A stretch of DNA of 64,000 nucleotides from a virus. The notes under the pieces were generated by a model. It did not search any database. It was not told the origin of the DNA and was given only the letters and a program-made list of their open reading frames with translations. The stretch is from the IMG/VR virus record IMGVR_UViG_3300038696_000205, positions 32,001-96,000 of that record; one strand, given 5' to 3'. Both the position numbers and the translations under genes were made by a program. Shown in pieces: positions 2,571 through 18,434 of the stretch; position 1 is the stretch's first letter; every line of letters starts with the position of its first letter.

Positions 2571-2682
2571 AATTTCTAAATTTTAAGGTTCATATTGTTT
2601 GATGGTGTAAAGATACAAAAACATATTTGATATTTATGTTAATAAATGTTAAAGTTTTTAATATTATAAAATATAATTTATT

Positions 2683-2749
2683 ATTTAGCTATTGGACGTA
2701 ACGGAGTCTACTCTACTAAGGTGTTACCTCAGCCCGTATCTTTCTACAT
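2683..2749 (-). ncRNA. Repeated structured RNA family, copy 1
   Basis: Minus strand TGTAGAAAGATACGGGCTGAGGTAACACCTTAGTAGAGTAGACTCCG behind its own TTTG/TACCTTTA promoter; no ORF. Confidence 0.65.
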
Positions 2750-2825
2750 TGTAAAGGTACAAATAAAAATCCTAACTACAAAAGTAATTAGGATTTATTT
2801 TTAGTTAATATGTTATCTAGTTATC

Positions 2826-2951
2826 CTAGAATAACGATACGATAGCCAATATAATAGCTATTAATAAGCTACCTAGTACAAAGGTCGCTAAAAGTCTGGC
2901 TATAATTAAATAAATCATTCCAATTGTGATACTGTTTTTTAAGGTTTCCAT
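2826..2951 (-). CDS. Small membrane protein (41 aa)
   Basis: METLKNSITIGMIYLIIARLLATFVLGSLLIAIILAIVSLF; own promoter near 2986. Confidence 0.5.
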   Translation of the reverse strand: METLKNSITIGMIYLIIARLLATFVLGSLLIAIILAIVSLF

Positions 2952-3150
2952 GTTATATATTTTTAGGTTTATATTATTTGATACTCAAAGATAATTTTTT
3001 TATCCGTAACCACCAAAAATAATCGATGAACTACATCATTTTTATTAAAATTGGATATTATTAAATAATATTTGTTAATTCGTTAGATTATTAGAAATAT
3101 GGTTTGTATCTTTGCCATGAACAAATATTATAACCTTTAATTTTTAAGAT

Positions 3151-3447
3151 ATGGAAAGTTTGTCAATTTATGGTCGTGCGCACAATGTAACATCTGAAAT
3201 AGAAATCTTCAATGATTCCGAGTTCGGTATGGATGTGGTAATTTGTCGATATGATGATGGTATTGAGGTTCGCAGAAATTGCACCGAGTTTCATCACTTG
3301 TTCGACACCAAAGAAGAAATCTTATTCAGCCATTGCGCATCAGCTTTTGAGTCCGACATACATACTACGGGTGGAACGATTAGTTACGATAAGATTAAAT
3401 GGATTATTGTGGAACACGCTACCAAATTACATGATAGCCACCGATAA
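3151..3447 (+). CDS. Hypothetical protein
   Basis: ORF of 98 aa; plus-strand GTATCTTTG promoter near 3105; terminator at 3466-3488. Confidence 0.75.
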   Translation: MESLSIYGRAHNVTSEIEIFNDSEFGMDVVICRYDDGIEVRRNCTEFHHLFDTKEEILFSHCASAFESDIHTTGGTISYDKIKWIIVEHATKLHDSHR

Positions 3448-3465
3448 TGGCTAACATCAAATAAG

Positions 3466-3538
3466 AAACCCCTAAATGGGGTTTTTTTTGTTGCTTGTTT
3501 TATACAAAAAAAAAAGGTGCCGATTAATCAGCACCTTT
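3466..3538. terminator. Two adjacent terminator hairpins between convergent genes
   Basis: AAACCCC-TAAAT-GGGGTTTTTTT and AAAAAAGGTGC-loop-GCACCTTT. Confidence 0.65.
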
Positions 3539-3566
3539 AAATATGATGTACACAAATGTGTATATA

Positions 3567-3797
3567 TTAGTCTTGGTAGACTGGTTCTATTAATGTTCCG
3601 TCTTCCGTTTCTATTGTTTGACCCTCCCAAAGTACCATGTACTCTAGTTCATCCCATTCGTAGCCATCTATTAAGGCTTGGTTTACATTTTCATCATCGA
3701 CTACATCAAAGATGCTTGTACCGTCTGTAAGGTATTCAGAAGCTCTATATGGGTGGTCGATTGCTACTTTTAAATCGGCTAAGGTATTAATTTTCAT
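3567..3797 (-). CDS. Hypothetical protein
   Basis: True start is probably MKINTL at 3797, downstream of the promoter near 3821. Confidence 0.65.
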   Translation of the reverse strand: MKINTLADLKVAIDHPYRASEYLTDGTSIFDVVDDENVNQALIDGYEWDELEYMVLWEGQTIETEDGTLIEPVYQD

Positions 3798-3843
3798 GTG
3801 GTTTGTTTTATTGTTCCCTACAAAGATAAGTATAATAATTGTA

Positions 3844-4542
3844 TTATACAAATTTAATCGTAAGAAAAAATGAATTAATATCAGCTATGTGTTTGTAGTG
3901 TGTAAACGTTGCAATTTCTTTTTTGTTTTGGTAGGTGTAAGATAGTTCGCTATCGTATGATGGTTCATAATTTATTTTCATTACCATTGTACCCATGACA
4001 TAAAATGACACCTCATACGTTGTCATTTCTTCAATGAAATCATCATCGTTAATGAAGCGTTTTTCCATTTTCTTCTTTAGGGTTACGTTACCCTGAAAAC
4101 CGCTACGATTGTTTTTTACATTAAAGGTAGTGTTTTCAGCATCTATTTTATTATCGACCATTTGAAAATCATTTTCATCTTTGCCCCAAACTAAATCTGT
4201 ATCGTTCTTCTTTAATTTTGTTACTATAATATCATCAATGATATAGTCTTCTTGTTCGTGGGTGCTTGCTATACGGTCTTATATAATTTTAACAAACCCT
4301 TGTATTCTATTATTAAAGAATTTTTTAGCTATTGCATCATCAAAAGAGGACATTCCCATCAATATGGTATGTTCTTCGTCATACCTTGGATAGTTTGAGT
4401 TGCCTATCGTTTCTGGCAATAAATAATTAAAGGCGTATAGGTTATCTGAACCATCGGTTTTACCCTCGTTCTTATTTGATAGTTCAAGAAAGTTTTTAAT
4501 AAATTCGTTGGTTAGTTCCTGTAAATTATCAGCTATTTTCAT
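3844..4542 (-). pseudogene. Single 232-codon reading frame interrupted by one TAA (4279-4281)
   Basis: ORFs 4279-4542 and 3844-4161 are in the same frame; the 39 codons between them are open (...FVKII*DRIASTHEQED...). Confidence 0.7.
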
Positions 4543-4704
4543 GTGGGTTGTTTTGTTTAATACTCCCGTTGGTCGGGCTTACCACAAAGATACAAAATAA
4601 AAACAACCCCACCTAATTTTGATGGGGTTATTTTTATTAAAATTTTAAAATAAAACTTTAACATATTATATTTTGTAGTCTCAAATAAAAGGCTTATCTT
4701 TGTA

Positions 4705-4799
4705 GTGTGCAAGAGACACGGGCTGAGAAATCAGAAGAGTAGACTCCGTTATGCAACTGCGTCAGCGTTGCTAGACTCCGACCTACCTTATACTCAAAT
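4705..4799 (+). ncRNA. Repeated structured RNA family, copy 2 (internal duplication of TAGACTCCG)
   Basis: GTGTGCAAGAGACACGGGCTGAGAAATCAGAAGAGTAGACTCCG...; own promoter (TTTG at 4672, TATCTTTG at 4696); ends at a hairpin at 4817-4853. Confidence 0.7.
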
Positions 4800-4859
4800 A
4801 TTTTGTTTTTAAAAAAAAATAACCTAGAATAGAAATTTCTATTCTAGGTTAAAGTTATT

Positions 4860-5030
4860 TTAGATTAATCCTATTGATAACAATACGGACTCGTGACCAT
4901 GCTCACAATGTCCATCAGGCTCAACCTCGCAACCATCTGAACAACAAGCTGGAACTACTGAATCCATACATTCAATCAACTCTAGTCCGTGTAATCTTAA
5001 TGCTGCACCCGCTGAAATTTTCTTACCCAT
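4860..5030 (-). CDS. Small Cys/His-rich putative metal-binding protein (56 aa)
   Basis: ...PACCSDGCEVEPDGHCEHGHESVL; own promoter near 5067. Confidence 0.65.
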   Translation of the reverse strand: MGKKISAGAALRLHGLELIECMDSVVPACCSDGCEVEPDGHCEHGHESVLLSIGLI

Positions 5031-5105
5031 AATAATATATTTTAAGGTTTATGTTATTTGTTACATCAAAGATAAGAATAATAATTGAATAAACCTAATT
5101 TTGTT

Positions 5106-5489
5106 TTAAATCTTTTCAAAAAGTTCTTCTATACTATATGGTGTTGTATGTGAACCGCAATACTCCCGTAAATCTTTAGTAATTAAAACGTAATCATCAT
5201 AACTACCGATAGGCGCATAAACTTTAGCAGACGTAATAAAACCATAATCACCACTTTTAAGTTTTACTATCTCACCTACTTTATTACCCTCTAATTCTTT
5301 AATGTATCTCGGTTTGATAAATTTATTAACGTTTCCATCTTTATCACAAATAAATGAAAGTTCATTATGGATTAATTTTGGTTTATCCAATAGGATACTT
5401 TGTATCCAAAGTTCGTCACCCTCTTTAAAAATATGGGCAAGACTATTAATCGTTAACCTTGCCCTAACCTTAATTTTTTTACCTCTCAT
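5106..5489 (-). CDS. Hypothetical protein
   Basis: ORF of 127 aa. Confidence 0.6.
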   Translation of the reverse strand: MRGKKIKVRARLTINSLAHIFKEGDELWIQSILLDKPKLIHNELSFICDKDGNVNKFIKPRYIKELEGNKVGEIVKLKSGDYGFITSAKVYAPIGSYDDYVLITKDLREYCGSHTTPYSIEELFEKI

Positions 5490-5491
5490 AA

Positions 5492-5719
5492 TTATACAAA
5501 TCTGTTTATATCGTTACCGCACATTTGCTTTGCACGGCTAATAAATTCGTCCTTAGAAGCCATCATAAGAATATCTCTAGTGTCCTTATCGAACCAGTAA
5601 GAAACACCCTCATCTTTGGTATTTTCGACTAGAATCTCGTTTGTCATGTTGAATTGACCTTTAGCCATCCCATCACCCTCGTTTAATTCAAATTGACCTA
5701 TTTTTCTTAGAACTTTCAT
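5492..5719 (-). CDS. Hypothetical protein, near-identical paralogue of 6983-7210
   Basis: MKVLRKIGQFELN...RAKQMCGNDINRFV. Confidence 0.75.
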   Translation of the reverse strand: MKVLRKIGQFELNEGDGMAKGQFNMTNEILVENTKDEGVSYWFDKDTRDILMMASKDEFISRAKQMCGNDINRFV

Positions 5720-5801
5720 AATAATAAGGTTTATATTGTTCGTTACTCAAAGATACGAAATAAAAACAACTCTACCAAATTAATGATAGAGTTATTTTAA
5801 A

Positions 5802-6137
5802 TTATTTTACATATTCGTCAACCCGTTCAATTTTGTTGTCGATAACATCTACCAAATCTTCAAAGTAAATATCTTCGATAACCTCTTTTACAGTACCCCT
5901 AGTACTAGTAAGGTAGATATTGTAAAGGTCTGAACCGTTAACTGAAATATAAACATGACCTTTATGGTGGTGTCCGTTTACCTTGAATCTAAGGAACTTA
6001 TTATACAAGTTCATCCATGCTTGACCACCCCAACTAAAAAACTTAAGACCGCCAGTCCTAAGAAGTCTCAAGGTTTCATTAACGTCTTGTTGTCTCATTG
6101 ATTTTGATAACTCTGATGTGTTTATTTTGTTTGACAT
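5802..6137 (-). CDS. Hypothetical phage protein
   Basis: ORF of 111 aa with own promoter; FKVNGHHHKGHVYI motif. Confidence 0.7.
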   Translation of the reverse strand: MSNKINTSELSKSMRQQDVNETLRLLRTGGLKFFSWGGQAWMNLYNKFLRFKVNGHHHKGHVYISVNGSDLYNIYLTSTRGTVKEVIEDIYFEDLVDVIDNKIERVDEYVK

Positions 6138-6274
6138 GATATAAGGTTTAATTATTAATAATAATCAAAGATATGAAATAAAAACTATAACAACTAATTA
6201 TTTAACATTTAATTTTATTTTAAAACTTTAACATATTATATTTTGTAGTCTGGAATAATAGCCGTATCTTTACG

Positions 6275-6342
6275 GTGTACAAAGATACGGTCTGACCCAG
6301 CAAGTTAGTAGAGTAGACTCCGTTGCACCATATACTGAAAAT
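6275..6342 (+). ncRNA. Repeated structured RNA family, copy 3
   Basis: GTGTACAAAGATACGGTCTGACCCAGCAAGTTAGTAGAGTAGACTCCG; own promoter; terminator hairpin at 6356-6379. Confidence 0.7.
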
Positions 6343-6382
6343 TCTTTTAAATGGAAAATGAGGTTTTTACACCTCATTTATT

Positions 6383-6906
6383 TTAGTAATTTTGGATTTG
6401 CTCCAAGACATATTTCTCATTATATGCGTGTGGATAACATTTTGAACATGATGCTTTACGCTTCCTTTTTTTATGTGAGGGACTTTCCGTACCACAAGAG
6501 TTACATTTCATGGTATATTTAGATTGAACGCTACTAGAGTGCTTAATACTAGAGCATCGCTCCCCATCGCAACCTATCGCTAGCGCAATACTTCTCCATT
6601 GCCAGTCGTGTGAACTTTTCCCCTAACCTCAAAATCTATGGCGTGGGCTATCTCGTGCAATATTGTATTTTTCCAAGTGGATAGCGGATTTTCACTATTT
6701 TCAATTATCCAACTGGATAGGGCAACCGTTTTCCTAGATTTACTACAAGTACCCAAAGCTGTTTTTTTCGTGTGGAAAACAAACCGCCATCCCAATTTAG
6801 CCATATTATAGACGTTACCTCTATAAACAAAATCGTTGGACATATACTCTAAAGCTAATTTCTTAATCGTTACTAGGTCGCTATTTACTTTTGTAGTTGT
6901 ACACAT
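6383..6906 (-). CDS. SprT-like zinc metalloprotease, split by a -1 frameshift at 6616-6623
   Basis: HEIAH motif in frame 0; the -1 frame continues SSHDWQWRSIALAIGC...KCNSCG...CSKC (second His motif and Zn ribbon typical of SprT) to TAA at 6383. Confidence 0.75.
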
Positions 6907-6982
6907 AATATATGGTTTATTTGTTATCGTTAATCAAAGATATTAAATAATATTTAAAATTCTTAATTATTTAACATTTAAT

Positions 6983-7210
6983 TTAAACAAACCGATTAAT
7001 ATCATTACCGCACATTTGTTTAGCACGGCTAATAAATTCATCACTAGAGGCTAACATAAGTATATCCTTAGTATCGTTACCAAACCAGTAAGAAACTCCC
7101 TCATCTTTGGTATTTTCCACCAGTATTTTATTGGTCATATTAAATAGACCTTTAGCCGCTCCATCACCCTGATTTAATTCAAACTGACCTATTTTTTTTA
7201 AGATTTTCAT
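6983..7210 (-). CDS. Hypothetical protein, paralogue of 5492-5719
   Basis: Start MKILKK at 7210, downstream of the promoter near 7244. Confidence 0.75.
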   Translation of the reverse strand: MKILKKIGQFELNQGDGAAKGLFNMTNKILVENTKDEGVSYWFGNDTKDILMLASSDEFISRAKQMCGNDINRFV

Positions 7211-7402
7211 GATATTATGGTTTAAATTATTTGTTACATCAAAGATACAAATAATAAATGTAACTACCAAATAAAAATATTAAATAAAAACTTGTGTATT
7301 AAAAAACTTTGTTTTATATTTGCAACCGCATTAAAGCAGACTATTGGGAATCACCAGTATAATGTACGGTATAATATACTGGTGAGTTTTAACATAATGT
7401 GT

Positions 7403-7678
7403 CTACCACATGCCGTAGGCTTCTCTATTTAGCTCTACTTTACTTTCAATCCATTTCAATACTTTTTCAGAATAGTAGGGTGTGCCGTTTTCTTCTAGGA
7501 AATTGCTTAACTTTCTTCGCACGTTTCTTGCATCTATACTGGTTTCCATTTTCAGGACGGTTCTTTTGCTGTAATAATCCCTGAACTCTAATGTGAGGTC
7601 GTTACCCTTAATGATAACACAAATAATACCACCTACCACGGACTCGCCAATCTTGAAACTTTTAGTTGCCTTTAACAT
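7403..7678 (-). CDS. Hypothetical protein
   Basis: Likely start MLKATK at 7678; the ORF-track start overlaps the promoter. Confidence 0.6.
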   Translation of the reverse strand: MLKATKSFKIGESVVGGIICVIIKGNDLTLEFRDYYSKRTVLKMETSIDARNVRRKLSNFLEENGTPYYSEKVLKWIESKVELNREAYGMW

Positions 7679-7900
7679 CTTATAACTTATTTTGGTTAAT
7701 AATTTTAGCCGTTTGTCGAACCCATGTACACATTTGTGTATATTGCTATTCCACATATCAAAGATAATACTTTTAATTGAATCTACCAAACATTATTTAC
7801 AAATAAAAAGGTTCGCACAATTAAGTACGAACCTCCTAACAAACAACAGGGAACCACCCCTATAACCAGTTTAGTACTGGTCAAACATCAACATCAAATC

Positions 7901-8386
7901 TTATATCGTTATTGATAGCGAACCATCTAAGGTTTTGCTATTTTCACCCCATGGCTTGAAACTAAAACCTATGTTTCTTTTTGGGAATATCTCTTTATAT
8001 AATTCAAAAGGTCTTCCCCAGTCGTCAGCATCACCATCACTAGTAACCTTTGTACTTCTAATGTGGTATTTAATTGACATTAAGAATAAACATACCGCCA
8101 AATCATAAGGCTTCCTAGCGGTCTTACAGAAATTATAATCAACCTCGCCCAAATCAATTAACATAGACTCATGGTCAAGTCCAAATTTAGAATTACCATT
8201 GAACGATATAAAGTCGTCATAGTAAACTACTCCATGTTTTTCACCCAAACCATCATGTAGGGTAAAGTGGTCTTCAAATTCAGGATTTGTAACAAAAGCT
8301 TCAATAGCTTTCATATCGGCTGTTAATTTCTTAAAGTTTCTTTTTGAAACTTCTCTTGACATACTAAAATAATGTGTGTAACCCAT
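7901..8386 (-). CDS. Hypothetical phage protein (MGYTHYF family)
   Basis: ORF of 161 aa; FCKTARKPYD motif; own promoter near 8411. Confidence 0.75.
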   Translation of the reverse strand: MGYTHYFSMSREVSKRNFKKLTADMKAIEAFVTNPEFEDHFTLHDGLGEKHGVVYYDDFISFNGNSKFGLDHESMLIDLGEVDYNFCKTARKPYDLAVCLFLMSIKYHIRSTKVTSDGDADDWGRPFELYKEIFPKRNIGFSFKPWGENSKTLDGSLSITI

Positions 8387-8459
8387 AATATAATTGTTTA
8401 TTTGTTCCCTACAAAGATAATACTTTTAATTGAATCTACCAAACATTATTTAATATTTT

Positions 8460-8705
8460 TAATATAAAAGGTAAGAAGCATTGTTTATCTCGCCCATACA
8501 CCCTTTAAGGGGTGCGTTCCCAGTCGGCTCATGGCAGACTATTTGCGAATGCAGGAATATTTTACCTGTACCTTCCTCTTGTGGTACAGTACTCCTTACC
8601 AATTAATTAAACCGTCAACCCTCGGTGCTACTTTTAAGTTTCTAGTTATGTGAGGGTAATTTTATATAGTTCACTAATCTATACTTCACAATAACGGTTA
8701 TTTTC
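8460..8705 (-). ncRNA. Candidate ~240 nt structured RNA of unknown class
   Basis: Promoter at 8713-8745 followed by no ORF; closing helix GGUAAGGA/UUCUUACC (8470-8600) enclosing CUGUACC/GGUACAG, AGUC/GACU and GCACCCCU/AGGGGUGU stems. Confidence 0.6.
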
Positions 8706-8755
8706 TACTCTGTAAAGATAATACTTTTAATTGAATCTACCAAATATATTTTGAT

Positions 8756-8977
8756 TTATTCTTCTCTAGCTAAAAAATTAGCTATCTCGTGCCGTAATAT
8801 GTTCCAACCTCCAGCGGTAGTTGCTTGGTCAAGTAATAACCTAGCTTCACCTATTACCCTACGTTTTTTTATGGTCGTTGGGGTGTATTTGTCAGTACCC
8901 TTAATAGTTGTTTTGGGTATAGGTCTATTGGTTATCGCCCTTAACCTATTTCTTTGGTTCGTATAATAAGCTTCCAT
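8756..8977 (-). CDS. Hypothetical basic protein
   Basis: ORF of 73 aa. Confidence 0.55.
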   Translation of the reverse strand: MEAYYTNQRNRLRAITNRPIPKTTIKGTDKYTPTTIKKRRVIGEARLLLDQATTAGGWNILRHEIANFLAREE

Positions 8978-8978
8978 A

Positions 8979-9215
8979 TTACTCGTTTTCGATTATCCAA
9001 GTTTCAACTTCATCTATGAAGTCGGTAACTTCTTCCTCTTGCTCTTTACCGTCTTCATCATAATAGTCATCGGTAGTTGGTAGAGACACCCCAATCATAG
9101 TTCCTAGGTATTCATCGTTTACCGTGACCTCAACACCATTATCATAATCGTCATTAAAGAATAACCTACATACTACGTTATCATTTGTAGGGGTACTAAA
9201 GCTGAATTGTGACAT
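8979..9215 (-). CDS. Hypothetical acidic protein
   Basis: ORF of 78 aa with own promoter. Confidence 0.65.
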   Translation of the reverse strand: MSQFSFSTPTNDNVVCRLFFNDDYDNGVEVTVNDEYLGTMIGVSLPTTDDYYDEDGKEQEEEVTDFIDEVETWIIENE

Positions 9216-9260
9216 AATTTATTTGTTTTATTTGTTCTTAACAAAGATACGAATTAATAT

Positions 9261-9705
9261 TTAGTCTACCAAATTATTTTTAAATAAAATCAATAATTCT
9301 TCTCTATTCATAAAATGTAGTTTGGTATCACCATCTTGACTATAAAAATGTAGTATAGGGTACATTTTACCTTCTTCCTTATCGTACTCTATTAATATGG
9401 TTTCACCGTTTAAAGTCTCAAATGTATGTTCATCGCTTTTACGCTTAGGGTCGTTCACCATTAGTAAAACCAACTTGTTCATATCACTATTGGTCATTGT
9501 AAAGTACACCCACTTGAAACACGTTGGTTTATTTGAATGTACGCTTACCTTTTGCGTTTTTAAAACTTAGGGTCGAATGTGTTGTCGTCTTGGTCATTTC
9601 GGCTATCTCATAACCACCAAAGGACATCTTGCTATTAACGGTCTGGGCATTACCCACCCAAGAGGTTAATAGAATTACGATTAAGAATTTTAGTGAAGTT
9701 TTCAT
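9261..9705 (-). pseudogene. Putative secreted protein with a +1 frameshift in an A5 run (9557-9561)
   Basis: Signal-peptide-like MKTSLKFLIVILLTSWVGNA at 9705; removing one A joins it in frame to ORF 9261-9509. Confidence 0.5.
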
Positions 9706-9760
9706 GGTTGTTTTTATTTGTTCATAGTAAAGATACGAATTAAAAACTAGACCACCAAAT

Positions 9761-10078
9761 TTATTTCCTAATAAATGCGAATAATTTTCTCTTTTTAAGA
9801 TAATTTAGTTTCTTCTCGTTTTTATAGGCTTCCTTCTCAAAGATTATATTCATATAAGCCGTTTTAACATCACCGTACTTTAAATACTGTATAAGAAAAT
9901 CAAATGCGTACCAAATATAAAATAATATTATCAATAATTCAAGTTGTTGTCTTAAATGAATATTCTCATGATTCAATCTAACTTGTGTAGCTTTCGACAT
10001 ATCCTTGAAAATGATAAAAGGGAATATCGTAATTGCAGCATATCCCCTTGGTACTAAATACTTATTGATTATTGTCAT
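9761..10078 (-). CDS. Membrane-associated HExxH protein of a type common in Bacteroidota
   Basis: AITIFPFII...NHENIHLRQQLELLIILFYIWY; preceded by ATATTTATA. Confidence 0.65.
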   Translation of the reverse strand: MTIINKYLVPRGYAAITIFPFIIFKDMSKATQVRLNHENIHLRQQLELLIILFYIWYAFDFLIQYLKYGDVKTAYMNIIFEKEAYKNEKKLNYLKKRKLFAFIRK

Positions 10079-10120
10079 AACTTTGGTTAATTTCTATATA
10101 AATATGTAACAATGATAGAA

Positions 10121-10471
10121 TTAGTTTGTCCTATCTTCAATAAATGATTCAATTGTTTCATAAAAATCCTTATTTACCCAAGTTTCACCCTCATATTCTT
10201 TCTCAAATTCAGCAGTAAGGTTTGATGCTAGTGCGGATATACTCATTTTACCCTTCATTAAGCGCATTTCTCTAACTGGATTACCCAATACATCACAAAG
10301 ATATAATAGTTCGCTAGTGACCTCGAAAAACGTTTCCTGATAGGATACAAAGCCATTGGGCATATCTTCCGTGATTGCGGTCATAATATCCCAAGCACCC
10401 TCAACATTTTTTGGGTTACCATCTTTAATTGGCATAATTTTCATCTTGTTTGTTTTATTTGTTCTTAGCAA
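10121..10471 (-). CDS. Hypothetical protein
   Basis: ORF; true start probably MKIMPIK. Confidence 0.6.
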   Translation of the reverse strand: MLRTNKTNKMKIMPIKDGNPKNVEGAWDIMTAITEDMPNGFVSYQETFFEVTSELLYLCDVLGNPVREMRLMKGKMSISALASNLTAEFEKEYEGETWVNKDFYETIESFIEDRTN

Positions 10472-10507
10472 AGATACTAAATAAAAACTAATCTACCAAA
10501 TTTATTT

Positions 10508-10684
10508 TTATTCATCTGATTTACTTAGTCCAAGCCCACATAAAAATCCACCTGATAACATAATTATAACATACATTATCATAAATTTAGGTGACGTAAA
10601 TAATAATTCATAATAAAACATCACCGATGAAAACCCAATAGCTAATAATAAAAGCCCTATAATCGTTATGTTATGTGATTTCAT
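10508..10684 (-). CDS. Small two-TM membrane protein (58 aa)
   Basis: MKSHNITIIGLLLLAIGFSSVMFYY...; overlaps the stop of the upstream ORF. Confidence 0.5.
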   Translation of the reverse strand: MKSHNITIIGLLLLAIGFSSVMFYYELLFTSPKFMIMYVIIMLSGGFLCGLGLSKSDE

Positions 10685-10868
10685 TTTTTTCTGTTTTAAG
10701 ATTTTTGATTTGTTTTTTATATTTCCCTAACAATTCCTCATGCATACCATCATTTAATAGTTTCAACTTGTTTAGATATTTTCCCACTCCACAATTTTCA
10801 ATGGTCTTCGTTCCCATCCTTAAACCTCTTAAACCATTTTCAATTCTAGTGATATATAATTTTTCCAT
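10671..10868 (-). CDS. Hypothetical protein
   Basis: ORF of 65 aa. Confidence 0.6.
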   Translation of the reverse strand: MEKLYITRIENGLRGLRMGTKTIENCGVGKYLNKLKLLNDGMHEELLGKYKKQIKNLKTEKNEIT

Positions 10869-10909
10869 ACTACAAATATAACTGATTAATTATTAATTTA
10901 CGAATATTT

Positions 10910-11500
10910 CTACGATTTAATTTCTAAACCTTCATACCACTTATCTTCGATATGCTCACTAATACCATTGGTACTCAAATTATCACCATAGAACCCATAA
11001 CAAGAGTCTATATGGTCGCCATTTTCATCGGTTACCTCAAAACCATATACCTCACCACTAATCCAATTATTAAGCGTATCAACCTCTGAAACCGCAATAT
11101 CGTTAGCCATCTTAATATATTTCTTGGTAACGTTTTTAATTCCCCAATTCTCCCTGATATCTTTTTTGGTTACAACTACGAACCCAATGGTTCCAGAATC
11201 CCACCTACAATTAAATGGGTACCCATTGCTAGTGCTGATTGAAGTGCCAGAATGTTGATATAGGTTAACGGGAATGACTACAGCGCAGTCAAGTTCTTTA
11301 CTGATTTTTTCAGCACCATCGATTTTAAAACTATCCCGACTATCATAATCGGGTAAGTTGATATTGTGCTTATCACCCAAATGGTTATGCCTACCAAAGA
11401 AAATCATTTCACTTAGGTTATACCAATTTCTAGGTGACTCGGAATCTGTATCGTTTACTATCTTAATTGTTTCGTTTCCTAATGTGAATTCAGTTATCAT
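10910..11500 (-). CDS. Hypothetical phage protein
   Basis: ORF of 196 aa; DSESPRNW, YQHSG and DSCYGFYG motifs; own promoter. Confidence 0.75.
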   Translation of the reverse strand: MITEFTLGNETIKIVNDTDSESPRNWYNLSEMIFFGRHNHLGDKHNINLPDYDSRDSFKIDGAEKISKELDCAVVIPVNLYQHSGTSISTSNGYPFNCRWDSGTIGFVVVTKKDIRENWGIKNVTKKYIKMANDIAVSEVDTLNNWISGEVYGFEVTDENGDHIDSCYGFYGDNLSTNGISEHIEDKWYEGLEIKS

Positions 11501-11565
11501 GTTGTTTGTTTTATTTGTTCAATACAAAGATACTAAATAAAAATAACCCTACCAAATAAAATTCA

Positions 11566-11811
11566 CTATTCCTTATAATATTTTTCTAAGCTATACTCTT
11601 TAAGTTTAGCTCTGTTTTTAGCCAACACAACTTTAACGGACTCATTATCCATGCTCCAAACATTGGAACTTATTAATCCCTGTATTAGTTTTTCATCATT
11701 TTTTAACTCTAGGTATTTTTTCTTACGTAGTCTATACGCCCTCCAATCTTCAAAAGAATACAGCAACTCAAAAAAAAAGAATAGAATATTTAAAAATAAT
11801 TTCTTAATCAT
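11566..11811 (-). CDS. Hypothetical protein
   Basis: ORF of 81 aa. Confidence 0.5.
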   Translation of the reverse strand: MIKKLFLNILFFFFELLYSFEDWRAYRLRKKKYLELKNDEKLIQGLISSNVWSMDNESVKVVLAKNRAKLKEYSLEKYYKE

Positions 11812-11999
11812 AATTATTTAAGATTATAAAATTGTTCAAGTTGTTCTAACTCGTTTTCATCTTCACTTGTATCGTTATCCCTATTCTTATCATATTGAAT
11901 AGAAGCGATTAAAGTACCCCTATGTAAGTTTACATGGAATTTACTTGCACTAGGTTTAAAGTTATATGTTTTCATAAGTCAAAGATACGAATTAAAGTC

Positions 12000-12320
12000 T
12001 TATAACCCAAATGTTTTAACATTTTTTATTTCCTTAAATTCAAATATGATTTTCTTAGGGAATAAAAAATTCTTAAAACTAATTTCCTCCCTAGTCATAT
12101 TAACTGGATTACCTTTTGAATCAAAAGGGGAAACCTCATATAATTTATTATTGATATGAACCTCACCATCCGTAAAAAACCATGAGATATATGAGTAATT
12201 ATAGTCCAGGCGTTCCAATTCACTCTTTAACAAGTGCGCACCAATACAACCTGATTTAGACCATGTTTGATAACCTCTGTTTATTATCCTATTGGTTAGT
12301 TTTGTTATTATAGTTTCCAT
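12000..12320 (-). CDS. Hypothetical protein
   Basis: ORF of 106 aa preceded by ATATTTATA. Confidence 0.6.
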   Translation of the reverse strand: METIITKLTNRIINRGYQTWSKSGCIGAHLLKSELERLDYNYSYISWFFTDGEVHINNKLYEVSPFDSKGNPVNMTREEISFKNFLFPKKIIFEFKEIKNVKTFGL

Positions 12321-12417
12321 AATTAACGTATTTATTATATAAATATACTGCTTTTTTATATAAAAAACAAAAAAAAGGCACTAAAAAGCACTTTTTTAAC
12401 ATATTTTACCCTAAAAC

Positions 12418-12816
12418 CTAGATATTCCTATTTAAAATCTCGTAACCATCATCTTTGAATTTTGTTAACATACTCTATTTCCATGTTTGGAAATCCTTAT
12501 GTTTCTTCAATTTTGACAATAAAAGGGGAAAGTTTACAGTATAATGTTTTTCATCCTTGGATAAACACCAACCTTTTGACTGATTTACGGTTACAAAGTT
12601 GTAATTTTCAACAATTTCAAGAATTTCGCTCTCGGTTTCTAAGTTTCCGTACTTCTTATGTACCTCGTTTGAGTTACTGGATAGGTCGTTAGGACCTCCC
12701 TGACCTCGATTGGACACATCGCAGATATATTCCCCATTATCCCATAACTCGCCACTAAAACAAGCCGTTTCTTCTGATAACGCTTCATTGAATTTAATCT
12801 TTCTTACTTCTAATAT
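12418..12816 (-). pseudogene. Phage protein lacking a canonical start and carrying an internal TAG
   Basis: LSEETACFSG...SNRGQGGP motif; the listed GTG lies inside the -7 box; the frame continues after TAG at 12475 (SMLTKFKDDGYEILNRNI). Confidence 0.5.
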
Positions 12817-12919
12817 AACTGAATTGTTTATTTGTTCAATACTCCCGTTGGTCGGGCTTACCACAAAGATACAAAATAAAAACTAATCTACCAAATTAAT
12901 GATAGATTAGTTTTATAAT

Positions 12920-13255
12920 TTAAGCCTGTTGTGGAGAATTAACCCCATCGGCAAACAAACCACCAAATTTAAAATCAACACCACCTTTCGTAGAGAAAAT
13001 ATCGCTATCTTCATTACCATAGGTTAGGATAATATCAATATCCTTATGCTCGGTCAATTCTAGCTCGGCTATTGCTTCTGCAATTGTCATTGGTTCAATG
13101 TCACCGAATTCACTTATGAATATTTCTCGGTAATCATCATGCTCACTAAAGATAGTTACATTCTGCTTTCCGCAATATCTTGTGATAGTTCCCAATAACG
13201 GTTTATTGGGTTGGTTACTCGTTTTTAACTTGTCAATTAATTCTTGAACTGTCAT
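12920..13255 (-). CDS. Hypothetical protein
   Basis: ORF of 111 aa with own promoter. Confidence 0.65.
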   Translation of the reverse strand: MTVQELIDKLKTSNQPNKPLLGTITRYCGKQNVTIFSEHDDYREIFISEFGDIEPMTIAEAIAELELTEHKDIDIILTYGNEDSDIFSTKGGVDFKFGGLFADGVNSPQQA

Positions 13256-13334
13256 GATATTATTGTTTTGTTTTAATGTTAATCAAAGATACAAAATAAA
13301 AACTAACCCACCAAATAAATGATGGGTTATTTTT

Positions 13335-13715
13335 TTAAAAGAATTTATCTCCAATGGATAAATTAAAAGTCTCCTCAAACCAATCCCATATATCGTATTT
13401 ATGCGTGCCAACTACAAAATGTAAAAATTCTTCTTCTATGTGTTCATCTTCTTCTTCGTCACATGGAATATCTCCCAACTTAACCCAAAGTGCCTTGTAA
13501 TCAATATCCATTAAATATGAATCCGTATTACATTCTGGACAACCCTTTAGAAAGTCACGCTCACTAGGTTCATCATTTAACCTTTGCACCGCACCACCAG
13601 TTTGCTCGGTTGCCGTTGGTGTCTCGTTTTCATCGTTGATGTCGAACTCAACCAAGATAAGGTCTTCTTCATCACCGTACCACCCACAATTATTACACTC
13701 ACAAAAATTTTTCAT
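13335..13715 (-). CDS. Zn-ribbon-containing hypothetical protein
   Basis: CNNCGW...CPEC; C-terminal GTHKYDIWDWFEE motif. Confidence 0.7.
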   Translation of the reverse strand: MKNFCECNNCGWYGDEEDLILVEFDINDENETPTATEQTGGAVQRLNDEPSERDFLKGCPECNTDSYLMDIDYKALWVKLGDIPCDEEEDEHIEEEFLHFVVGTHKYDIWDWFEETFNLSIGDKFF

Positions 13716-13794
13716 AACGCTTGTTTTATTTGTTCCCTACAAAGATACTAAATAAAAATAACCCTACCAAATATTTGATAAGGTTATTTTATAT

Positions 13795-14001
13795 TTATTT
13801 AACCACATAGTATTCACTTGACACACTCAAAAAATATTTCCAATCGTTTTCGGTAGAGTTTTCATCAGAATCAAACTCATATTGGCTAACTGGGTGAGTT
13901 CTATATTTTACAAAAAACTTACCATCAATATATTTTCTAATGGTAAAGGTTCGTTTACTTTTATTTGACGTTACCTTAATCGTTTCTCTTTGTTTTCTCA
14001 T
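13795..14001 (-). CDS. Hypothetical protein
   Basis: ORF of 68 aa. Confidence 0.6.
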   Translation of the reverse strand: MRKQRETIKVTSNKSKRTFTIRKYIDGKFFVKYRTHPVSQYEFDSDENSTENDWKYFLSVSSEYYVVK

Positions 14002-14043
14002 AATACATGCTCTATAACGGCAGTTACATTAGGAGCTTTTACG

Positions 14044-14262
14044 TTATTCGCCTAATGAAACAGTAACCTCGGTATCACTATACCACTCGTTTACATGAAT
14101 TATCTCGGTATATATATCGGAATCTTCTGGAGCAAGTCCTGCGGTGTTAGCTTGCTCTAGAATGGCATCCGCAATGTTTTGCGCCATCTCGTTCTTATCT
14201 TCATCACTTGTGATTTTATCACTTGTGGTAATCGTAACCATAAATCTAGTTTCCTTATTCAT
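14044..14262 (-). CDS. Hypothetical protein
   Basis: ORF of 72 aa with own promoter. Confidence 0.65.
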   Translation of the reverse strand: MNKETRFMVTITTSDKITSDEDKNEMAQNIADAILEQANTAGLAPEDSDIYTEIIHVNEWYSDTEVTVSLGE

Positions 14263-14305
14263 TTTGTTTGTTTTATTTGTTCAATACAAAGATACGAATT
14301 AAAAT

Positions 14306-14578
14306 CTAATCTACCAAACTATTTTTATAATATAATTCAAAACTTCTGTTCTTATAATCATCTGAATTATACCACTTATTTAAAGCACATTCCCATTTGA
14401 AGTCTTTAAATTTATTATAGTAGCTAGCATCACAACGTCTATTTTTTAAATAGAACTTATCCAAAATTTCCTGTTCATCAACACCCTCTAAAATAACCTC
14501 ACTAATGTTGAATCTCTCATTACCAGAAAAATTATAGTGGTCTATTTTTCTAACATATTCCTGTACAATAGCTTACAT
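14306..14578 (-). pseudogene. 90-codon gene with TAA at codon 2 (ATG TAA GCT...)
   Basis: Promoter near 14606, ATG at 14578, then an open frame AIVQEYVRKIDHY...YYKNSLVD to TAG at 14306. Confidence 0.65.
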
Positions 14579-14702
14579 AATATATTTGTTTATTTGTTGC
14601 TTAATCAAAGATACGATTAATAATCTTATAAACCTAATAATATTTAAACAAAAATAAATTAAAATATGTTTGGTAGAACCAAATAAAAGCCGTATCTTTA
14701 CG

Positions 14703-14769
14703 GTGTACAAAGATACGGGCTGACCTAGCAAGTTAGAAGAGTAGACTCCGACCTACCTTATACTCAAAT
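14703..14769 (+). ncRNA. Repeated structured RNA family, copy 4
   Basis: GTGTACAAAGATACGGGCTGACCTAGCAAGTTAGAAGAGTAGACTCCGACCTACCTTATACTCAAAT; own promoter; hairpin at 14788-14811. Confidence 0.7.
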
Positions 14770-14870
14770 TAAAATAAAAAATAAAAATAGGGTGCGAATC
14801 ACCACACCCTACTCTAATATAAAAAATAAAACAACCAAATTATGGAATATCTGGTATTTTTTAATAACTT

Positions 14871-15071
14871 CTAAGGTTGGTAGAAGTCAATTAATATTTC
14901 AAAAATCCCTAAATCAGGATTATATTCTATAAATTCTTCAATCGATAAATTTGTATTATCGTTCTTAGCTATATATGCATCCCATGCATCACATACCGTA
15001 ATAAATCCACAATCGGAACTTACAGTTCCAATTATTTCTTCATCTAAATCGTGCAATTGTATTCCGCTCAT
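14871..15071 (-). CDS. Hypothetical protein
   Basis: ORF of 66 aa with own promoter. Confidence 0.6.
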   Translation of the reverse strand: MSGIQLHDLDEEIIGTVSSDCGFITVCDAWDAYIAKNDNTNLSIEEFIEYNPDLGIFEILIDFYQP

Positions 15072-15145
15072 ATTCTTATATTTATTTGTTGCTTAATCAA
15101 AGATACGATTAATAATCGTATAAACCTAATTTAATTTCATTAAAA

Positions 15146-15352
15146 TTAATCCTCTTGATATACAAAAGGTTGTATTGTAATTGAATCGGAAGCATCCTGT
15201 AATACGCTAACATCAATATTAACACCCTCGAAATTAAGTGTATTAAAATCTTCATCCATATAACACCACATACCATTTTTATTGTAAACCACAATATTAA
15301 CTTGTGGGAAAAATGATTTTACATGTTGAAATGCTGTAACTACTTTTGACAT
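15146..15352 (-). CDS. Hypothetical protein
   Basis: ORF of 68 aa with own promoter. Confidence 0.6.
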   Translation of the reverse strand: MSKVVTAFQHVKSFFPQVNIVVYNKNGMWCYMDEDFNTLNFEGVNIDVSVLQDASDSITIQPFVYQED

Positions 15353-15435
15353 AACATTTTTTTTTATTGCTTAATCAAAGATACAAATAAAAATCCTAAC
15401 TACCAAAAGTAATTAGGATTTTTATTAATTAATTT

Positions 15436-16263
15436 TTATGCATTAACAACCTCGTTATTTTCTACATTAATAATAAAGTCGTTATTATCTAGGTTATCCT
15501 TATTAACCCCTTTTGTGCCCTTGCCAGTCATTAACTTATACTTTAGACCTACAATGACATTATCCTTATCTAAGAACCTTAAATCGCTTTCGTCACCGTT
15601 AACAACCTCATAGCCCATATAAGTTTTAGGTAAGTCGCTTTCGTTACGTACACCAAAAACCATAGCAACATTATGACCGTTTTTTAACATTGCCATACTT
15701 TTTTCATCGTTCGTTTCAGAACGGCTAAAAGTTAAATGCAAATTTTTAGGTAGGCCGGCATTATACCTTAAATAATTTTTGGTATAATCGTAAAATTGAA
15801 TTTCAGGAAATAACTCAAAGATATTTTTACCATCTTTAATCTTAAATTTCTCAAATCTAATATCAGCCGTACCGTTTAAACGTACTGCAAACTTTTTATA
15901 CCTTAATACATCACCGTTACGTTTTAGCGTTAAATCGCCTAATATGGCATCATGCTTTGCTTCTATTTTAGTTAGTTCATCTACCAACTGGTTAAGAAAT
16001 TTTACCCTATCGGCTAAAAAATACTCGGTCTTATTAACTTTGCCCGCTTGAACTTTGTCGAACCTAGCAGCACCACTACTAAAGAGACAAGCAGCAGCAC
16101 AACCCTTGCTCGCATGACTACATAAATTGATACCCTTACTATTTTGGGTAAAAGGAGACATATACATTATATAAGTGGTATATGAAAATTTTTCACCCTT
16201 AATGGTTTTGCTATTTTCAGTAGATAATAAATTGTTGGGAACTCGGTAATTTAAAGTTTTCAT
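15436..16263 (-). CDS. Gene product 88 (GP88) family phage protein
   Basis: NLCSHASKGCAAACL, RLNGTADI, IQFYDYTK, LTFSRSE and GDESDLRFLD motifs. Confidence 0.75.
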   Translation of the reverse strand: MKTLNYRVPNNLLSTENSKTIKGEKFSYTTYIMYMSPFTQNSKGINLCSHASKGCAAACLFSSGAARFDKVQAGKVNKTEYFLADRVKFLNQLVDELTKIEAKHDAILGDLTLKRNGDVLRYKKFAVRLNGTADIRFEKFKIKDGKNIFELFPEIQFYDYTKNYLRYNAGLPKNLHLTFSRSETNDEKSMAMLKNGHNVAMVFGVRNESDLPKTYMGYEVVNGDESDLRFLDKDNVIVGLKYKLMTGKGTKGVNKDNLDNNDFIINVENNEVVNA

Positions 16264-16342
16264 GTTGTTTGTTTTTTTGTTCAATACAAAGATACAATAT
16301 ATAATTGAATTGACCTAATAATATTAAATAAAATTTACTTAA

Positions 16343-16576
16343 TTAAAATGAACCTATAAGAGTCTGTTTAACCTGACTACCATAGCACCAACTACCATTA
16401 TCCAAAACCAGTATAACACTACGACCCCTTACATCAACCCATGGCACTTCTTCAACATCATCACCAGACTTGTTAACACAATTAATTTCAATACCTTTAA
16501 CCACCACTAACTTAGGCGCATCACTACCAAAACAACCCCTCCAAGATACTACATCACCAACTTTTAAATTTACCAT
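16343..16576 (-). CDS. Hypothetical protein
   Basis: ORF of 77 aa with own promoter. Confidence 0.6.
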   Translation of the reverse strand: MVNLKVGDVVSWRGCFGSDAPKLVVVKGIEINCVNKSGDDVEEVPWVDVRGRSVILVLDNGSWCYGSQVKQTLIGSF

Positions 16577-16630
16577 AATTTCTATTGTTTTATTTGTTCA
16601 ATCAAAGATACAAATTAATATCTTATAAAC

Positions 16631-16789
16631 CTAATTTCCCTTATGTGATTTTAAAAACATTATAGAATTTTCATAATTCTTAATCATTTTAAAATAAGCC
16701 TTAATTATAATATCATTATCTTTAGTAAGAACTTCTAACCTTACCTTATACAATTGATATTCCAATAATTTAATAGCTAACCATTTCAT
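16631..16789 (-). CDS. Small hypothetical protein (52 aa)
   Basis: MKWLAIKLLEYQLYKVRLE... Confidence 0.45.
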   Translation of the reverse strand: MKWLAIKLLEYQLYKVRLEVLTKDNDIIIKAYFKMIKNYENSIMFLKSHKGN

Positions 16790-16791
16790 AA

Positions 16792-17019
16792 TTATAATTC
16801 TTTTAATTCATAATCCCTAGTACCAAAACCATTTACAAATAACCATGCCCGTATTTCATTCTTAGCATCATCGCCAATAGATTTTTCTATATTAAAAAAT
16901 AACTTAGGAATATCATTAACAATCTCATATACATCAATAAATATAATACCATTAAGTTCAGCCTTACCATTGCGAACCCGTGTTTGTTTATCAACCGTAA
17001 AATAAAGTCTACCTTTCAT
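16792..17019 (-). CDS. Hypothetical protein
   Basis: Likely start MKGRLYF downstream of the promoter near 17044. Confidence 0.55.
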   Translation of the reverse strand: MKGRLYFTVDKQTRVRNGKAELNGIIFIDVYEIVNDIPKLFFNIEKSIGDDAKNEIRAWLFVNGFGTRDYELKEL

Positions 17020-17151
17020 AACTCCTGTTTTAATCGTTCCCCACAAAGATACAAAACAATATCTTATAAACCTAATAAAAACATAACGAAAATAAAATAA
17101 AAATAATTGCAATTATGTTTGGTGGAACCAATTATTAATCGTACCTTTACA

Positions 17152-17219
17152 ATGTGCAAGAGACACGGGCTGACCCAGCAAGTCAGAAGAGTAGACTCCA
17201 CCGAACCCTATACCCAAAT
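17152..17219 (+). ncRNA. Repeated structured RNA family, copy 5
   Basis: ATGTGCAAGAGACACGGGCTGACCCAGCAAGTCAGAAGAGTAGACTCCA...; own TTTG/TACCTTTA promoter. Confidence 0.7.
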
Positions 17220-17289
17220 TTTAAATTAATAAAAAAATTTGCAAAGATAAGAAATAAATCCTACCCTCGCAAATCTTTTATGTTAAATC

Positions 17290-18219
17290 TTATACCGCCA
17301 TCTCACTAGCCGCAAATTTGAAACTCTTATCATTAATGGTATAGTTACCACTTAACATAAGGCTCTCAACCCTCCCATTGTCACGCTTAGGGGCGTTTCT
17401 ATCATGTGTTGACCATCTAGTAAACCCACTATGTAATCCCCATAGATTTTTGCCCTTATCAGATATTTGATGCCCTATATTACCATATATGGTGTCCAAT
17501 ACATTTTCAACCCTAGTAGGCAAATCTTGGTCTAACCTACTATACCCATAAACAGTCTTAACCGCCCTATGTATAGTCTTATCGTTAATATCGAACCTAC
17601 TAAATTTATTGTAGGTGTCAACCAAATTTAAAGAGTTACGCAATTGACGTTCTATCAAAGTTGGTAATTCCCCTTTACGTACATTTAAACTAGCAGTATG
17701 TTTCAACTTACTCTGACCATCTTTGTAAAATTGATAAAATTGATTCATACAACTTACAGTCAAATCACCCACACCAACACTTAAACCAGTACTACCATCA
17801 TTACTATCGACCAAGGTAATATAACGCTTAATTACATCACCGTTTACATCACCATCACCCTCTATCGATAATTGTAAAAATACCTTTCGACCACCATTAA
17901 TACTACCACCCTTAACAACGTCCAAAGTATTTGAATACTTACTAGGTAAATTCCCAATACCCTCCAACATTAATTCCACAATTTCATCATTCTGCGAAAC
18001 CGTATAACCCTTTTTAACACTATTGATAATCTCACCAGTCTTATCATTGTATAACATAAAATAAGGGGTCTTAACCTCCTCGATACATTCTACCATACCA
18101 CCATTATCACCAATGGTCAAACCATTACGCAAAGCAACACTAGGTAACTTCTCAATCCTGAAATCTAAATCATACTTAATTAAAATTTCCCTCGCCAATA
18201 CATCTAAATTCTTATCCAT
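17290..18219 (-). CDS. DUF932-family phage/plasmid early protein
   Basis: GGRKVFLQL, DSNDGS and VSCMNQF motifs; 309 aa. Confidence 0.7.
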   Translation of the reverse strand: MDKNLDVLAREILIKYDLDFRIEKLPSVALRNGLTIGDNGGMVECIEEVKTPYFMLYNDKTGEIINSVKKGYTVSQNDEIVELMLEGIGNLPSKYSNTLDVVKGGSINGGRKVFLQLSIEGDGDVNGDVIKRYITLVDSNDGSTGLSVGVGDLTVSCMNQFYQFYKDGQSKLKHTASLNVRKGELPTLIERQLRNSLNLVDTYNKFSRFDINDKTIHRAVKTVYGYSRLDQDLPTRVENVLDTIYGNIGHQISDKGKNLWGLHSGFTRWSTHDRNAPKRDNGRVESLMLSGNYTINDKSFKFAASEMAV

Positions 18220-18367
18220 AATATAACAGTTTAATTATTGTTCATGGCAAAGATATAACTTAATATCTTATAAACCTAATATTTTAATTAAAAACTTTAA
18301 AATAATTTTATTTAAAAACTTTAACATATTATATTTTGTAGAACCAATTATTAATCGTACCTTTACA

Positions 18368-18434
18368 ATGTACAAAGATACAGGCTGACCTAACAAGTTA
18401 GAAGAGTGGACTCCGACCTACCCTATATCGAAAT
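18368..18434 (+). ncRNA. Repeated structured RNA family, copy 6
   Basis: ATGTACAAAGATACAGGCTGACCTAACAAGTTAGAAGAGTGGACTCCGACCTACC...; own promoter. Confidence 0.7.

Follow-up and report, generated by a model that had tools for sequence, protein, structure and literature searches.

Phages are known to make small, promoter-driven non-coding RNAs, sometimes from several gene copies, that titrate a host defence protein: the pseudo-ToxI of phage PhiTE is a decoy copying the host ToxI repeat, and the RNA anti-CRISPRs (Racr) are reportedly phage decoys that copy the host CRISPR repeat. CsrB/RsmZ and 6S RNA are abundant small RNAs (sRNAs) that sequester a protein through conserved exposed motifs, and their dosage matters. 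The HK022 put RNA, about 70 nt long with two hairpins, lies immediately 3' of early promoters and ahead of long operons, and the promoter-early stem-loop (PeSL) cassettes of T4-type phages are said to flank open reading frames (ORFs), to be DNA-level elements and to belong to one phage group. Here we analyse a 64,000-nt stretch of phage DNA (hereafter the window), bases 32001-96000 of the 119-kb IMG/VR virus record IMGVR_UViG_3300038696_000205, in which a short promoter-driven element is repeated six times. Comparison with other phage contigs indicates that the six repeats are genes of a large, uncatalogued non-coding RNA family of Bacteroidota-type phages, with an RNA of about 55-75 nt, which we tentatively read as an early decoy.

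A preliminary description had placed an unrecognised structured small RNA at six sites, each behind its own promoter. Reading the six sites bore out both the positions and the promoters, and gave a common unit: TTTG, a spacer of 19-20 nt, TAyCTTTR, a few nt, a small hairpin, a triplet, a second hairpin (H2), 1 nt, the 12-nt block AGAGUAGACUCC (the 12-mer) and a C-rich tail. The two boxes stand directly upstream of each copy and fit the Bacteroidota promoter consensus (TTTG/TAnnTTTG at -33/-7); like boxes precede the many small minus-strand genes of the region (repeat families D1-D4). The tail of the window copies ends YUAUAC..AAAU, which in copy 1 reads AAUAGCUAAAU. The copies are listed here with their matches to R1, the covariance model of the family.

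2681-2783, minus strand: copy 1, promoter (TTTG, 19 nt, TACCTTTA) and RNA body; model match 2685-2739 (minus strand), E 4.9e-12; 12-mer at 2703-2714
4672-4797, plus strand: copy 2, promoter and RNA body; model match 4716-4797, E 3.7e-11
6242-6339, plus strand: copy 3, promoter and RNA body, with GGU in place of GGG and the tail GUUGCACC; model match 6285-6339, E 1.1e-13
14669-14767, plus strand: copy 4, the best fit to the family model; model match 14713-14767, 64.1 bits, E 1.7e-18
14669-14672, plus strand: -33 box TTTG of copy 4, read from the sequence
14693-14700, plus strand: -7 box TATCTTTA of copy 4, read likewise
14705-14716, plus strand: 5' hairpin of copy 4
14717-14719, plus strand: GGG of copy 4
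14720-14736, plus strand: H2 of copy 4
14738-14749, plus strand: 12-mer of copy 4
14750-14767, plus strand: tail of copy 4
17118-17217, plus strand: copy 5, promoter and RNA body, with the tail ACCGAACCC; model match 17163-17217, E 1e-14
18335-18432, plus strand: copy 6, promoter and RNA body, with the 12-mer variant AGAGUGGACUCC and AGG in place of GGG; model match 18378-18432, E 2e-15

The pattern GGCTGA-N(4-30)-AGAGTRGACTCC matched exactly five times in the window, against 0.00 expected by shuffling, and the remaining copy reads GGTCTGA. A 12-mer search with AGAGTAGACTCC returned six occurrences, one of them with a mismatch, and a repeat finder grouped the copies on its own (families D5-D10). 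Mean column identity in a MAFFT alignment of the six was 63%. The covariance model made exactly six matches in the window (E 4e-11 to 2e-18); on the whole 119-kb record it found the same six and nothing else at E<=1. Copy 1 alone is co-directional with its neighbours, and the other five oppose the surrounding genes, as had been described. Copy 2, whose H2 is CUGA-GAAA-UCAG, carries a 24-nt hairpin inserted 3' of the 12-mer and then a second UAGACUCC. Between 4736 and 4797 it thus has two UAGACUCC blocks with the hairpin between them. The first half has a tail like those of copies 1 and 3, the second half one like that of copy 4, and the whole has the look of a recombinant between two tail types or of a duplicated copy.

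The family extends well beyond this record. A first pattern, which required CTGA and thereby biased the sample, gave 41 loci in IMG/VR, about 35 of them with the same promoter-hairpin-block layout and often with several copies per contig, while a pattern whose sole anchors were the 12-mer and TATA gave more than 116 loci. R1, built from 76 sequences and scored on the fetched loci at E<=0.001, made 95 + 69 = 164 matches, corresponding to 144 distinct sequences on 89 loci. The carriers are mostly large Bacteroidota-type phage contigs from many metagenomes, with genomes of 64 kb to 635 kb. Representative counts with R1 are as follows.

The present record (G000), 119-kb fragment: 6 copies
G407, complete jumbo phage, 288 kb: 9 copies, all at 8.4-35.6 kb (within 27 kb)
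G406, 99% complete, 64 kb: 1 copy
LR745206, uncultured, 635 kb: 1 copy
Tenacibaculum phage Larrie, cultured, 77.5 kb: 2 copies
Flavobacterium phage immuto, 160 kb: 0 copies, weak blastn match only

Judged by such counts, jumbo phages appear to hold the RNA gene in multiple copies, with more copies in large genomes. The suggestion that the RNA is a dosage-dependent effector agrees with the numbers in the present record and in the 288-kb, 77-kb and 64-kb phages. The two copies of Larrie (ON950054.1, 18782-18841 and 19415-19473, plus strand) lie in unannotated gaps among small minus-strand genes. In the cellular genome collection the full pattern occurred only on phage-like contigs of metagenome-assembled genomes or as chance matches in coding DNA, and no cellular arrays were found; a type III antitoxin mimic of the pseudo-ToxI type was rejected on these grounds. 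At four contig starts of Parabacteroides faecis (L071, L088, L103 and L108), a terminator hairpin after 5S rRNA genes contains AGAGTGGACTCC by chance and produced repeated false matches.

As the preliminary description had supposed, the family is not a catalogued one. Rfam 15 gave no match in the window at gathering thresholds and, in 5 loci searched at E<=10, none that covered the element, and a literature search found no publication on the motif or family. The units have what is expected of trans-acting phage small RNA genes in general, namely their own promoter, no ORF, conservation across genomes and strand-specific structure.

The anatomy of the RNA was taken from the 144 distinct sequences. 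The start of the element always lies between a few and about 30 nt from the promoter, and the element consists of an optional, variable 5' hairpin, GGG, H2, the near-invariant block and the C-rich tail. Most members have the 5' hairpin, which is free in sequence and length and is sometimes absent or replaced by an unrelated hairpin. The covariation reported for its stem (GUA/UAC versus GUG/CAC) is therefore real within this phage but does not reach its relatives. A sigma/RNA polymerase decoy working through CAAAGAUAC in this hairpin, also proposed earlier, fails because only this phage and a few relatives have the word and the hairpin is unconserved. A divergent minus-strand promoter inside the 5' hairpin was dismissed at copy 4, where the spacing is wrong.

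The triplet ahead of H2 is GGG in 93 sequences, GGC in 20, GUG in 10, GGU in 8 and something else in 13. The base of H2 alternates between CUG...(C/U)AG, CUG...CGG and UC(G/A/U)...(U/C)GA, and its top is free, with loops that include GNRA, GACAA, CACAAG and UGAAAUA. The four modelled H2 pairs were 93% and 85% paired, with CG<->UA exchanges of 35:29 and 46:17 and many G.U pairs, and the pairing was far above that of shuffled and slid controls. On the opposite strand these G.U pairs would turn into A.C mismatches, so the constraint acts on the promoter-sense RNA or single strand. The described CUGA/UYAG stem thus holds as a covarying middle hairpin, whereas CUGA itself is not a family feature, many members having UCG...UGA or CUG...CGG. 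The kink-turn reading falls with it: many members have UCG, UCA, UCU or CGG at that position, and no conserved GA lies opposite. A hammerhead reading was likewise discarded, as CUGA is unconserved and Rfam is silent.

A linker of 1 nt (A in 86 sequences, G in 40, U in 18) joins H2 to the block, which is exactly AGAGUAGACUCC in 126 of the 144; UAGACUCC is its most fixed part and U10 is never replaced. The rare changes, among them G4C (four times), A6G and A3G/C, are uncompensated. For this reason a mini-hairpin GAG-UAGA-CUC within the 12-mer is unsupported: it shows no covariation and the rare changes break its pairing. The tail consists of 2 nt (AA, GU, GA and others), CCU (85) or CAC (34), ACC (62) or GUC (22), and YUAUA, and a run of at least five U follows right behind the element in 37 of the 144.

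Predicted folding energies of the six window copies were no better than those of shuffles (z +0.5 to -1.0), so that the word 'structured', used of the RNA from the start, holds for one hairpin, H2, which covaries on the promoter-sense strand, and not for overall stability. All three pairs between the triplet and the tail are possible in 71 of the 144 sequences, with some covariation (GUG with CAC; AGG with CCU, CUU or UUU; GACGUG with CACGUC as 6-7-bp helices), and GGG may alternatively pair with CUC of the block. In the picture given by either closing helix, a short helix would be stacked on H2 and a conserved purine-rich stretch of 9-15 nt would bulge from the 3' strand. The alignment contains no covariation-supported tertiary helix or pseudoknot. 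An H-type pseudoknot between GUAG(AC) and the tail was tried and set aside: most tails offer complementarity, but in differing registers, and the invariance of the block leaves no covariation signal. The RNA is thus predicted to be weakly structured with an exposed conserved block, the block appearing exposed because it is so often identical, because its rare changes are uncompensated and because the stability of the whole RNA is at shuffle level.

The RNA unit keeps no fixed relation to its surroundings. In all, 61 copies oppose both of their neighbours, 35 run in the same direction and 23 show a mixed arrangement, and no ORF is conserved over or behind the element. Two upstream motifs occur ahead of the conserved RNA body: one is the TTTG/TAnnTTTG promoter, and the other, TGCTATACAC, is a different repeat found in a group of contigs some 50-67 kb long, with 15 copies in G406. 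Comparison by blastp of the present record, Larrie and G406 found almost no proteins in common, thymidylate synthase (ThyA) being the only family in all three. DUF932, GP88 (including the window gene at 15436-16263) and SprT-like families recur within 3 kb of copies, and a terminase does so in one subgroup; none of them is present in all three carriers compared. Two upstream motifs, unrelated phages and unfixed orientation together suggest that the unit is a self-contained gene in which the RNA itself is the conserved part. Because the three unrelated carriers share only thymidylate synthase, its partner is probably host-encoded. The earlier statement that the window holds no partner protein stands and extends to these carriers, which share no candidate. 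A link to a Ro60-like protein and Y-like RNAs was considered and dropped, with no TROVE/Ro60 match in four carrier genomes and H2 loop motifs (ACAA-type) that are not universal.

As an observation beside this, the motif TGCTATACA(C/T) occurs about once per kb in seven contigs of roughly 50-67 kb (L212, L208, L235, L225, L143, L179 and L187), often ahead of genes and directly ahead of the RNA (n=15 in G406). It may be a phage-specific promoter.

The same evidence bears on whether the repeat exists for its RNA at all. The copies could be promoter cassettes that spread or shuffle early genes by recombination at the DNA level, with an RNA product that has no function. Like the PeSL cassettes, they are repeated units of early promoter and stem-loop among small early genes of a large phage; the repeat unit in the window takes in the promoter and about 45 nt upstream of it (142-nt family D6), the region is a hyperplastic one of tiny early genes, and copy 2 looks recombinant. 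However, phages with almost no common proteins and with different motifs upstream have conserved the RNA body, the 12-mer is far more conserved than the promoter, and H2 pairing is kept through G.U pairs. The invariant RNA block common to unrelated phages and the lack of an ORF also set the element apart from PeSL. We consider a purely DNA-level repeat very improbable.

We then asked what the block might recognise. In 5 Bacteroidota and 401 Flavobacteriaceae genomes, a part of the possible host range, the 12-mer was neither repeated nor enriched on either strand; it occurred in 19 of the 401, at most once per genome and no more often than a reversed control. These host-type genomes contained no CRISPR- or ToxI-like host repeat and no perfectly complementary conserved target. 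The proposed mimicry of CRISPR repeat/tracr pairing thus finds no footing there, and the RNA differs in this respect from Racr and pseudo-ToxI, which copy a host-encoded repeat, whereas the phage 12-mer has no counterpart in the host genomes searched.

A base-pairing regulator, in which the exposed 12-mer would serve as a seed for a conserved host or phage RNA (or DNA) and alter translation, stability or processing, is unlikely on these data. The design is sRNA-like, with an invariant and apparently unpaired block between hairpins and a terminal U-run in many relatives, and host 16S rRNA contains a 9-nt complement to the block. Yet the 119-kb phage has no complementary sites beyond the RNA genes themselves, the complement is unenriched in the 5 and 401 host-type genomes, and the best duplex with the Winogradskyella rRNA operon (-15.7 kcal/mol) lies inside the shuffle range (-10.7 to -17.1). 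Pairing with, or mimicry of, the rRNA operon was accordingly taken to be within chance. The word (G/A)AGAGUAG(A) of the block also occurs in Bacteroidota 5S rRNA, on the loop E strand, and by our own estimate about 0.1-0.5 such 8-9-nt words are expected by chance. 5S mimicry was rejected: R1 with filters off found nothing at the 5S gene or rRNA operon of L270, and the Rfam 5S model found nothing at the copies.

The carriers have no candidate protein in common, and the searches turned up no complementary nucleic acid. We therefore infer action in trans on a conserved host partner and, tentatively, favour a decoy or sponge: an RNA abundant early in infection that presents the 12-mer to a conserved protein of the host. 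The short G-rich closing strand and the variable H2 would form a scaffold displaying the largely unpaired, near-invariant R-AGAGUAGACUCC and the C-rich tail. Host-type early promoters would drive the RNA in large amounts early in infection, with more gene copies in large genomes, and the RNA would bind and titrate the protein in trans, the likeliest target being an RNA-binding defence factor or an RNA-metabolism factor. It would not regulate a neighbouring gene. Such a decoy would resemble CsrB in kind but not in form, since CsrB repeats its motif within one RNA and here the gene is repeated; the phage RNA also lacks GGA loops and a 6S-like open-promoter bubble, and the Rfam models are silent.

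Several points weigh against the decoy reading. A decoy is the default choice for an abundant RNA with a conserved exposed block, and the mechanism is putative. The closing helix is ambiguous, with GGG pairing possible to CUC of the block in 92 of the 144 sequences and to the tail triplet in 71, so the block may be partly paired. The 64-kb phage has a single copy and high dosage is thus not universal. A fast-evolving small phage partner would be missed by blastp, and targets recognised through short seeds of 7-8 nt may still exist.

A different use of the same transcript would be in cis: the nascent RNA would modify its own polymerase, as HK022 put does, giving read-through antisense transcription over early genes, or would prime replication through an R-loop. 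The constant closeness of the element to its promoter would suit this, as would the half of the copies that face against their neighbours. The ends of the window copies are also relevant, where three hairpins were found.

4821-4850, strand not assigned: hairpin 3' of copy 2, with a U-run on the minus-strand side
6357-6379, strand not assigned: hairpin 3' of copy 3, with U-rich plus-strand sequence behind it
14788-14811, strand not assigned: hairpin 3' of copy 4, with a U-run on the minus-strand side, towards the converging gene 14871-15071 (minus strand)

Several copies had been said to end at bidirectional terminators. Because the U-run is on the minus strand, the hairpins behind copies 2 and 4 look instead like terminators of the converging genes and not of the RNA; the one at 4821-4850 probably terminates the gene 4860-5030 (minus strand). 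Window copies read for this feature (2, 4 and 5) have no intrinsic terminator on their own strand, again in line with a role in cis. On the other side, the U-run right behind the element in 37 of the 144 relatives suggests short transcripts, orientation is unfixed with 35 co-directional copies, and Rfam shows no similarity to put or other antitermination RNAs. The units also precede no gene and many end in a U-run, unlike put. We regard a cis-acting element for transcription or replication as quite unlikely.

The closing helix with CUC raises another reading, in which the RNA mimics the acceptor stem of tRNA-Ala or transfer-messenger RNA (tmRNA) and engages a tRNA-end-handling enzyme or a tRNA-targeting defence toxin. 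In such a stem the 5' strand would be GGG(G) plus the opening 3 nt of H2, and the 3' strand the closing 3 nt of H2 plus CUCC (GGGGCUG/CAG^CUCC or GGGUCG/CGA^CUCC, with G.U at the third pair), with a 9-nt invariant purine bulge, R-AGAGUAGA, interrupting the helix and (R)ACC behind it. The acceptor stem of E. coli tmRNA is GGGGCUG, and Winogradskyella tmRNA reads GGGGUCG...CGACUCCAC. The phage RNA likewise has 5' GGG(G)CUG or GGGUCG and 3' CUCC then (R)ACC, with a possible G.U at the third pair. Its H2 base alternates between CUG:CAG and UCG:(U/C)GA in a tmRNA-acceptor-like manner, the GGG:CUC pairing is open to those 92 sequences, U10 is constant, and the same phage carries large tRNA arrays.

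Unlike a tmRNA or tRNA-Ala microhelix, though, the phage RNA needs the 9-nt bulge, and about one third of members are broken, the triplets GUG (10), GGC (20) and GGU (8) disrupting the helix and pairing with the tail. There is no uninterrupted 7-bp stem with 3' NCCA, the tails being (R)ACCU or CACGUC, and the class A tails (CACGUC) have no ACC. ARAGORN found no tRNA or tmRNA genes in the window, and both ARAGORN and the Rfam tRNA/tmRNA models are silent over the element. The likeness was also noticed post hoc, on short words, and we hold an acceptor-stem mimic to be improbable. If this were true, bulk production of the RNA would block a host enzyme or a defence toxin acting on tRNA 3' ends, either to read or to modify them, which would be an RNA-based counter-defence of undescribed kind; in a more general variant the RNA may soak up a defence protein or signal. 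The word GACUCCGA, which also occurs in a tRNA-Ala T-arm, was set aside as only 6 invariant nt.

We also considered a ligand-binding aptamer or small ribozyme, for example one that soaks up a defence signalling nucleotide or one that cleaves itself. About 15-20 near-invariant nt at a junction between variable helices are typical of such cores, and multi-copy expression from strong promoters would suit stoichiometric sequestration. Against this stand the lack of any Rfam riboswitch or ribozyme match, the very low predicted stability and the lack of a covariation-supported tertiary helix or pseudoknot; as each unit has its own promoter, processing would be unneeded. Such a function appears highly doubtful. 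The decoy reading remains the one we prefer.

The record itself has a CheckV completeness of 34% and is for this reason probably a fragment of a jumbo phage; megablast of the window against deposited phages found no close relative or near-identical cultured phage. The six copies fall within 16 kb occupied by very small genes, almost all of them on the minus strand and each with its own promoter, apparently an early region. A conserved box, AAAACTTTAACAT(A/T)TTAT, stands immediately 5' of the -33 element at several RNA promoters and also occurs in other places; it could be an UP-like element or operator. At least seven small minus-strand genes have a near-identical short leader and start region, GAACAAAUAAAACAAAC..AUG. 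Proteins of the early region include a GP88-family protein (PF17338), a small protein with a SprT-like metalloprotease domain, and a 106-amino-acid protein with a weak homologue beside the RNA in phage Larrie. These features are located as follows.

4654-4672, 6224-6242 and 18317-18335, also near 2650 (minus strand) and at 1898-1943: box AAAACTTTAACAT(A/T)TTAT, from sequence and repeat finder
3788-3817, 10435-10464, 11491-11520, 13706-13735, 14253-14282 and 16256-16278, minus strand: leader/start repeats (families D14 and D19), from the repeat finder
15436-16263, 6580-6906 and 12000-12320, minus strand: genes of the three early-region proteins, the first being GP88

Two further RNA features lie outside the family. 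At 18480-18645 (plus strand) a seventh promoter of the same type (TTTGGTAG...TACCTTTG) precedes a different RNA candidate of about 125 nt, with a long closing stem, a minimum free energy of -36.3 kcal/mol (z = -3.58 versus shuffles) and no Rfam match. Beyond the window, at 99224-116184 of the record (G000:C1, minus strand), ARAGORN found 24 tRNA-like genes, two with odd anticodon loops and one with the anticodon CUA.

Phage non-coding RNAs are far less explored than phage proteins, and the present family is apparently unpublished. A near-invariant 12-nt block in phages with almost no common proteins implies a strong general selective function early in Bacteroidota infection, probably directed at a host factor. 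Because Larrie is in culture and carries just two copies, the function of the RNA can be tested at the bench, and the identity of its partner could reveal a new mechanism of RNA-based counter-defence or host takeover.

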